Below the pieces are notes generated by a model. The model saw only the letters and a list, made by a program, of their open reading frames with translations. It did not search any database and was not told where the DNA came from. Below, in pieces: positions 49,725 through 49,997 of a stretch of DNA of 64,000 nucleotides (positions within the stretch are counted from its first letter, which is position 1; every line of letters starts with the position of its first letter). Made by a program: the position numbers and the translations under genes. This DNA comes from Escherichia coli (GTDB lineage: Bacteria > Pseudomonadota > Gammaproteobacteria > Enterobacterales > Enterobacteriaceae): assembly GCF_044324875.1 (NCBI RefSeq), contig NZ_CP172185.1, one strand, 5' to 3'.

Positions 49725-49997
49725 GTGTTAAATCCCGGTATAAGCAATCAGGGAGGCAACACGATGAAAAAACAAAAGAAAATGCGATACGTATTACGCT
49801 GTATTCGTATCCCGCACGAAATCGACCATAAAATAAATCAGATATGTAAGGACAGAGAGATGAACTACTCCCAGTGCGTCAGAATGTTTATCTGTCAGGG
49901 AATTAAGGCCGGGGAAACGCAGGAAGAAGACCGCAACGGGCGCAGTGTAGCGGGGGATGTGTGGGCCTGGGCAAATGACCAGAACTACACGACGTAA
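49725..49997 (+). CDS. Small hypothetical protein, possible ribbon-helix-helix regulator
   Basis: Segment MKKQKKMRYVLRCIRIPHEIDHKINQICKDREMNYSQCVRMFI has a beta-strand then helix pattern typical of RHH proteins; start uncertain. Confidence 0.3.
   Translation: MLNPGISNQGGNTMKKQKKMRYVLRCIRIPHEIDHKINQICKDREMNYSQCVRMFICQGIKAGETQEEDRNGRSVAGDVWAWANDQNYTT

Follow-up and report, generated by a model that had tools for sequence, protein, structure and literature searches.

A predicted ribbon-helix-helix regulator at a P2-like divergent late promoter in P4-like satellites that carry their own capsid gene

Introduction

What does a short open reading frame (ORF) do between an Ogr/Delta-type activator gene and a capsid operon, and on the strand opposite to both? 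In the 64-kb stretch of Escherichia coli DNA analysed here (the window), a 90-aa ORF runs on the + strand from GTG 49725 to a stop at 49997, flanked by an Ogr/Delta gene (50048-50230, - strand) and a gene for a 236-aa protein (48889-49599, - strand). A first-pass annotation had read it as a small ORF with a ribbon-helix-helix (RHH)-like pattern, embedded antisense in a late-type operon and encoding a possible repressor of a downstream cargo module. We asked whether the ORF is a gene, what protein it encodes, and which promoters that protein could control.

Results

The ORF is a conserved gene of 77 codons

The stop codon of the ORF stands as first annotated, while its start is most likely ATG 49764 rather than GTG 49725, giving a 77-aa protein (49764-49997 with the stop codon, + strand). 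We favour this start because a Shine-Dalgarno sequence, AGGGAGG (49750-49756, + strand), lies 7 nt 5' of it and is unaltered in 9/9 E. coli-type sequences compared; because NCBI PGAP annotates the identical 77-aa "hypothetical protein" in related E. coli chromosomes; because the distant homologues all start at the equivalent Met; and because the predicted transcription start, around 49740, falls downstream of the GTG.

Across seven E. coli alleles the gene has a pN/pS of 0.27, compared with 0.28 for ogr, 0.31 for the 236-aa gene and 0.15 for the neighbouring capsid gene. The ORF, whose position is conserved as well, is thus confirmed as a genuine gene under purifying selection like its neighbours. 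A comparison of the window with a single relative (L002), in which 5/6 changes are non-synonymous, had suggested neutral evolution and was overturned by the seven-allele ratio.

The family is small. A HMMER scan of 1.84 billion cluster representatives returned only four further clusters (P0010-P0013; 33-38% identity, 70-82 aa), making five 50%-identity clusters in total among these representatives, and further members, from Salmonella and E. coli, came out of a profile search. At 28-38% identity, homologues in eight diverged loci keep the length, position and orientation of the gene and nine invariant residues (R12, R15, P17, D21, I24, Y35, S36, C38 and W69), and the placement of the gene is identical in every locus recovered (L005, L008, L009, L010, L018, L020, L021 and others). 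Three database members (P0004, P0007 and P0008) are frameshifted or truncated; P0008, at first listed as a "53% identical homologue", was rejected as a true divergent relative since its contig also carries truncated neighbouring genes. A tblastn search of 50,697 deposited phage genomes found no homologue, a scan of viral contigs nothing beyond close relatives, and a scan of genome contigs with a narrow alignment no relative. PADLOC gave no defence-system match for the RHH and capsid proteins and only weak matches for the other two proteins. Literature searches found no description of the gene.

The protein is predicted to adopt a ribbon-helix-helix fold

No curated RHH sequence family matched the protein above threshold, yet every sub-threshold match was to an RHH family: CopG_antitoxin (13.9 bits, cut-off 28), ORF56 (15.9, cut-off 50), RelB/DinJ (15.2, cut-off 45.65), VapB, RHH_9, and Arc-like and CopG-like PHROGs (Arc-like phrog_582, E = 0.016). 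A PDB search with the family profile returned no RHH protein, only chance matches such as Mdm35, and no match was found when an HTH_17 domain was looked for. One source labels a member of the family "Arc family DNA-binding protein".

An AlphaFold model of the monomer (mean pLDDT 68) has helices at 18-31, 35-56 and 62-75, with a short helix and coil in the strand region; its Foldseek list consists mostly of RHH proteins (VapB, Arc, CopG, ORF56, CdbA and AmrZ), at E-values of 0.4-5. Since the strands of RHH proteins form only in dimers, we also modelled two copies in tandem, joined by a Gly-Ser linker, from a 13-sequence alignment. Both halves of this model show the strand-helix-helix order of the RHH superfamily, with a strand at 9-17 and helices at 18-30 and 35-56 (block-mean pLDDT 75-83 over the core), and a C-terminal helix of the protein at about 62-75 contains the invariant W69. 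The best structural matches of the tandem model were tandem-RHH TraY (probability 1.0, target-normalised TM-score 0.64-0.72) and permuted single-chain Arc, a likeness that would fit a dimer in which the two strands pair; all these matches had E-values of at least 0.05, and the E-values of the structural searches were all above 0.001. The RHH assignment first made from a sequence pattern is therefore confirmed at the level of the modelled fold, without passing the threshold of any curated family, and by predicted fold the protein is a member of the RHH superfamily that stands outside all of those families.

The hhalign register places R15-I16-P17 on R-M-P of Mnt and R-W-P of Arc. By that register, residues 11, 13 and 15 of the predicted strand pair with Gln9, Asn11 and Arg13 of Arc, which are the residues with which Arc contacts bases.

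The gene belongs to a P4-like satellite with a P2-type capsid gene

The window matches E. coli chromosomes that carry a P4-like satellite beside tRNA-Arg. The satellite is found in 56/5426 complete E. coli genomes, in copies at least 95.7% identical over the stretch. Its genes run in the order MazEF, P2 gpN-type capsid gene, 236-aa gene, RHH ORF, Ogr/Delta, a short and variably annotated ORF, a second integrase-like gene, toprim primase, small ORFs, an Icd-like gene, an HTH regulator and the integrase. Its identity as a P4-like satellite follows from the annotated integrase, toprim primase, Icd-like protein and Ogr/Delta, from a C4 RNA, and from the 236-aa gene, which aligns with P4 Sid. Rfam places the P4-type C4/CI immunity RNA at 58951-59038 (73 bits). 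The C4/CI-type RNA and isrK (50.6 bits) adjoin at 58951-59145 on the - strand, which confirms a P4-type RNA immunity.

The Ogr/Delta gene encodes a 60-aa zinc-finger activator (Pfam Ogr_Delta, E = 2e-11) and is convergent with the RHH gene. On the other side, the 236-aa coiled-coil protein is encoded by the first gene of a divergent operon, a predicted regulatory target of the RHH protein, and the second gene of this operon (47618-48889, - strand) encodes a 423-aa major capsid protein that matches P2 gpN (PDB 7jw1) at E = 7e-56. The satellite capsid protein carries an N-terminal extension of about 85 aa, and every related locus has the gene, with products of 341-474 aa. Our literature searches turned up no account of P4-like satellites that encode a capsid protein. 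The gene first labelled Psu-like is there; its family aligns with P4 Sid better than with Psu, by a weak hhalign match (E = 7e-4 over 133 columns, probability 26%, including the W52/G61 motif) compared with E = 0.16 for Psu, so "Sid-like" is the better label. Its similarity to P2 gpO is negligible (E = 0.36), and the protein had no sequence match in the PDB.

All five clusters share the same layout: toxin-antitoxin cargo, P2-type capsid gene, a Sid-like gene of 236-244 aa, the RHH ORF on the opposite strand, and Ogr/Delta. In the relatives the RHH gene is divergent from a 240-244-aa gene and the P2-type capsid gene, and Ogr/Delta is convergent downstream of it wherever an Ogr/Delta gene was called. 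The toxin-antitoxin slot between the capsid gene and the end of the element (46982-47574 in the window; also seen in L005, L010, L021 and L023) holds MazEF, HicAB or RelB/ParE, and L010 and L011 have a second MazEF-like pair near the integrase-like gene. These neighbours have their own antitoxins, and their identity changes between loci while the RHH gene stays. A shorter integrase-like gene (Int_N + Phage_integrase, 329-335 aa), additional to the tRNA-proximal integrase, is kept beside the primase in all loci (L001 13811-14815, about 54050-55060 in the window).

In the window an IS21-family element (50246-52884, with IstA at 51117-52763 and IstB at 50345-51343, both on the - strand, and a 5-bp target duplication) has inserted 15 bp 5' of the ogr ATG. 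Intact relatives have a TATAAT and two palindromes (see below) upstream of ogr, from which the gene is cut off here, and this copy of the satellite may therefore depend on a helper Ogr. Farther upstream of ogr lies a conserved block that looks non-coding (L001 about 12850-13060, about 53100-53300 in the window; equivalents in L005, L018 and L021). It contains three TGCACAA repeats followed by GCGCGCAGGTGACGGGGGAACAGCCCACG, and overlaps a short "hypothetical protein" whose annotation differs from genome to genome. The block may serve as a cos site or an origin. No copy of the P2 cos sequence turned up in the window with as many as three mismatches allowed, and when the P2 cos junction was compared by BLAST with the DNA upstream of ogr, only chance words matched.

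The intergenic region resembles the P2 pP/pO promoter pair

The 164 bp between the 236-aa gene and the RHH gene contain a TCT-N12-ACA dyad (49675-49692) of the type recognised as an Ogr/Delta activator site, imperfect in having TCT instead of TGT. TGT-N12-ACA is the consensus of the Ogr-dependent late promoters of P2 (PMC3931495). The dyad is present in 8/8 loci, and in the seven diverged relatives it reads TGT-N12-ACA in four and TGT-N12-AGA in three. In the window, 80.5 nt separate its centre from the RHH ATG and 84.5 nt separate it from the ATG of the 236-aa gene; across the loci, the distance on the RHH side is 80.5-84.5 nt in seven and 91.5 nt in the eighth, and that on the Sid-like side is 80.5-101.5 nt.

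Around the dyad we found -10-like hexamers at constrained distances on both sides. On the RHH side all eight loci have one that starts 44-46 nt from the centre of the dyad; it reads GATAAT in four of them, GACAAT in another, and in the window TTAAAT (49728-49733, + strand, 44-45 nt from the centre), with an offset of 44 in the relatives. The window hexamer is the predicted -10 of the RHH promoter and would place the dyad near -56. On the capsid side the hexamers lie 44-47 nt from the centre, with AAAAAT (49635-49640, - strand) as the predicted -10 of the 236-aa/capsid operon in the window, for a transcript expected to begin near 49628, and GATAAT, GATAAG or TATAAC in the relatives. This architecture of an Ogr/Delta-dependent late promoter, dyad and hexamers together, is found in 8/8 loci. 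A sigma-70 consensus scan of 49300-50400 returned nothing, which fits an activator-dependent promoter.

The GenBank record of P2 describes the same arrangement: a single activator site (3057-3087) is common to pP and pO and lies 56 and 55 nt from their mapped starts, with the scaffold and capsid genes driven by pO and the portal and terminase genes on the pP side. Computed on the predicted starts, the satellite intergenic region copies this geometry, some 56 nt lying between the dyad and either start; the Sid-like and capsid genes would be on the pO-like side and the RHH gene on the pP-like side.

Eight nt after the RHH stop codon there is a 14-bp stem-loop (50005-50039, + strand), with no U-tract after it. 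It is stable only in the + strand RNA (-21.8 kcal/mol, z = -3.6; z = +0.3 for the - strand), and allele differences in E. coli keep its pairing (G-C/U-G to G-U/C-G); it may act as a terminator or as an mRNA stabiliser. With its own ribbon of signals, namely a ribosome-binding site, a 3' hairpin and one side of the promoter, the RHH gene is a one-gene unit, and the first impression that it is embedded antisense in a late-type operon does not hold.

Palindromes cluster at the predicted promoters

We found that a 9-bp palindrome, YGTAWTACR, which we regard as the candidate operator, occurs eight times in the 64-kb window where 1.95 copies are expected, and that all eight fall within 49610-53330, or some 1.1 kb when the insertion sequence is left out. 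The loci can be divided by the residues of the RHH strand into a VLR type (Val-Leu-Arg), to which the window belongs, and an IRR type (Ile-Arg-Arg). VLR-type relatives have 4-8 copies in the 1.5-kb module and 0-1 in the remaining 7-23 kb; shuffles contain 0.03-0.08 copies, and 0/1000 reach the observed count.

Three of the window copies coincide with predicted promoter elements. Palindrome S1 (TGTAATACA, 49610-49618) is in the predicted 5' leader of the 236-aa gene, beside its ribosome-binding site and at about +13; S2 (CGTAATACA, 49650-49658), 29.5 nt to the left of the dyad centre, is at about -27 of the capsid-operon promoter; and S3 (TGTATTACG, 49700-49708), 20.5 nt to the right of the centre, is at about -35 of the RHH promoter. 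A further copy, S2b (CGTAATACG, 49678-49686), lies inside the dyad spacer and, among the loci examined, only in E. coli-type sequences. S4 (CGTATTACG, 49790-49798) is within the RHH coding sequence, where it is formed by the Val-Leu-Arg codons GTA TTA CGC, and S5 (CGTAATACA, 49993-50001) spans the RHH stop codon. S6 (CGTATTACG, 52965-52973) corresponds to a site about 92 nt upstream of the ogr ATG in intact relatives and is separated from ogr here by the IS21 element, and S7 (TGTATTACG, 53322-53330) is farther upstream, past the conserved block. None of the eight is near MazEF.

The offsets of the palindromes from the dyad centre, -29, +21, -70 and +108, are fixed across loci. The site at -28.5/-29.5 (about -27 of the capsid-operon promoter) is present in 7/8 loci, in one of them as TGTAAGACA, one base off; the site at -67.5 to -72.5 (about +13 of the capsid-operon transcript) in 5/8; and the site at +20.5/+21.5 (about -35 of the RHH promoter) in 6/6 VLR-type loci, as TGTATAACA in L009. 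At +107.5 to +110.5, inside the RHH coding region, three loci have the exact 9-mer and 5/6 VLR-type loci the core GTATTACG. The corresponding GTA-TTA codon pair is kept in 5/6 VLR-type loci, although the codon usage of these loci predicts it at 1.3-6%, and the synonymous sites beside it have diverged. The palindrome is held, against codon usage, within the very Val-Leu-Arg codons of the strand predicted to read DNA.

Every locus has two to four additional palindromes upstream of ogr, at variable distances, some of them flanking the conserved block. In L008 a stretch of about 126 bp that lies upstream of ogr is duplicated in tandem (3880-4140), each copy having one TGTCTGACA palindrome.

The palindrome changes together with the predicted DNA-reading strand

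Two loci (L008 and L018) have the strand S-I-R-R-T in place of S-V-L-R-T. Their modules contain zero YGTAWTACR and three TGTCWGACA-type palindromes each, one of which is at the -29.5 offset and the others upstream of ogr; the RHH promoter itself is without a palindrome in these IRR-type loci. Conversely, the five VLR-type loci with exact YGTAWTACR have zero TGTCWGACA-type sites in the module. The remaining VLR-type variant, L009, has the strand SVLRAMRVP and three copies of TGTATAACA. Replacement of Leu by Arg at residue 11 accordingly accompanies an A:T to C:G change beside the palindrome centre, in a sample of five clusters with one clean switch and one variant (L009), in which every other module protein diverges along the same VLR/IRR split. 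Arg commonly reads guanine, and a contact between residue 11 and the changed base pair would be chemically sensible; R15 could make a similar contact with the G at plus or minus 3, both of them being invariant.

Discussion

The best explanation of these observations, as read from sequence, is a transcription factor confined to a single lineage of P4-like satellites, whose members have Sid-like and P2-type capsid genes of their own. We think it fairly probable that the 77-aa protein is a dimeric RHH factor, made under Ogr activation, that represses the Sid-like/capsid operon of the satellite and its own gene. In our model, Ogr from a P2-like helper, or the Ogr/Delta of the satellite, would fire the two-way late promoter, and the RHH protein would be made together with the Sid-like and capsid proteins. 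One dimer would then bind each palindrome, with strand residues 11, 13 and 15 reading bases, at predicted sites at about -27 and +13 of the capsid-operon promoter and about -35 and +53 of the RHH promoter, and in the E. coli type at an additional site within the activator dyad. Binding would compete with RNA polymerase or Ogr and so produce negative feedback on the capsid module and on the RHH gene, and the sites upstream of ogr would probably extend this feedback to the activator. Dimers at separate sites may be linked through the C-terminal helix and its invariant W69, much as happens through the Mnt tail.

The sign of regulation is deduced solely from where the sites lie, and repression is its best-supported reading. 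In this respect the repressor proposed in the first-pass annotation survives, with other predicted targets, namely the late promoter, the promoter of the RHH gene and the DNA upstream of ogr. Control of the toxin-antitoxin cargo is contradicted by the positions of the eight palindromes and by a cargo that varies while the RHH gene stays. Instead, the protein might activate, co-activate or time transcription, or it might silence the capsid operon constitutively in the lysogen until a helper Ogr arrives. Intact E. coli relatives do have a palindrome about 57 nt upstream of the predicted ogr start, an activator-type position, and a TATAAG near the ribosome-binding site in the window allele could act as a weak constitutive -10. 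The best-conserved sites, however, overlap core promoter elements (about -27, +13 and -35), the TATAAG varies among E. coli alleles, and the consensus scan found no sigma-70 promoter, so that we regard these possibilities as unlikely.

The sites upstream of ogr raise the question of whether the palindromes mark satellite DNA for packaging or replication, the RHH protein being an accessory factor for satellite-made capsids or a binder of some partner through its Trp helix. In all loci 2-4 palindromes flank the block upstream of ogr, whose TGCACAA repeats and GGTGACGGGGGAACAGCCCAC are loosely cos-like, the RHH gene takes the pP side, which in P2 belongs to the portal and terminase genes, and the invariant Trp is kept in the C-terminal tail. 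Against this, the block does not match P2 cos and the most precisely placed palindromes are in promoters; we know of no RHH protein that acts as a packaging-specificity factor, and consider such a role quite unlikely. As the sites overlap the capsid promoter and also flank this possibly cos-like block, the protein might even couple the two processes, forming with the palindromes a satellite-specific address system that ties the timing of capsid production to the marking or compaction of DNA for packaging into satellite capsids. To our knowledge no such role has been described for an RHH protein or for P4-like satellites, and we would give this idea only a slim chance.

The palindromes could also belong to another factor, Ogr/Delta or a helper protein, leaving the RHH protein with an unrelated target. 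They do contain TGT and ACA triplets like those of Ogr half-sites, and the Ogr/Delta proteins differ between the two subfamilies (60-74 aa versus 81-98 aa). Nevertheless, P2 and P4, which both use Ogr/Delta and both lack the RHH gene, have zero YGTAWTACR sites, which argues against the palindrome as an Ogr element; in addition, a 9-bp palindrome suits one RHH dimer, and the residue that covaries with it is at a base-reading position of the strand. We infer that the RHH protein itself binds the palindromes, and a different binder seems to us very unlikely. Finally, an orphan antitoxin or a chance or decaying ORF, suggested by the CopG, RelB and VapB antitoxin families among the weak matches and by the damaged database members, is largely refuted and extremely improbable, since all eight loci are without a co-transcribed toxin partner (ogr, which comes next, is convergent, and the RHH stop has a hairpin after it), the adjoining toxin-antitoxin pairs have antitoxins of their own and vary between loci, the gene is under purifying selection, and the truncation of P0008 extends to its neighbours.

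If the protein is a repressor, the proteins that it most resembles in mechanism, by analogy, would be Arc and Mnt of P22 (immI region), small phage RHH repressors with short symmetric operators that overlap promoters. Arc represses the promoter from which it is itself made, and Mnt, of 82 aa, consists of an RHH core and a C-terminal oligomerisation helix, a two-part layout that it has in common with the 77-aa protein. Sequence similarity to the P22 proteins is not significant (hhalign probability 20% for Mnt and 0.5% for Arc), the operator sequence differs, and the setting here is a satellite late promoter rather than the antirepressor locus. MetJ (8-bp met boxes), omega (heptads) and CopG likewise place one dimer on each short site, with several sites around promoters; their sites abut, whereas the satellite palindromes are dispersed, 20-360 bp apart. 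The RHH family is not detected by Pfam models of the MetJ, omega or CopG type, while CopG and related RHH structures appear in the fold-search list.

Among satellite proteins, the position of the RHH gene is analogous to that of P4 Vis (ORF88), a small DNA-binding regulator of P4 late promoters that is divergent from sid. As Polo and co-workers are said to have described in 1996, Vis is made from the late promoter and feeds back on late transcription. Vis, however, is a helix-turn-helix protein (AlpA/HTH_17) and an excisionase, and the RHH protein is not homologous to it. In related loci the early region near the integrase retains an HTH_17 gene of its own, and the closest E. coli relative has its HTH regulator there, which indicates that the RHH protein is an addition and not a Vis homologue. 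P4 has no gpN-type capsid gene, whereas the satellite in the window does. The likeness to P2 lies in a single Ogr-type site between divergent starts, with the Sid-like and gpN-like genes on the capsid side; the two differ in that P2 pP drives portal and terminase genes while its satellite counterpart would drive the 77-aa regulator, and in that the core promoters of the satellite are overlaid by 9-bp palindromes, of which P2 has none.

The RHH family is new, though of a known type of regulator. Our analysis turns a "hypothetical protein" into a testable regulator with a predicted operator, a promoter architecture and a recognition rule, by which Leu or Arg at residue 11 would read the base pairs beside the palindrome centre. 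It also brings out a lineage of P4-like satellites that have their own P2-type major capsid gene under what appears to be a copied pP/pO-type late promoter. In such satellites the production of satellite capsids would have to be balanced against that of helper capsids, and the RHH protein would be the obvious control point.
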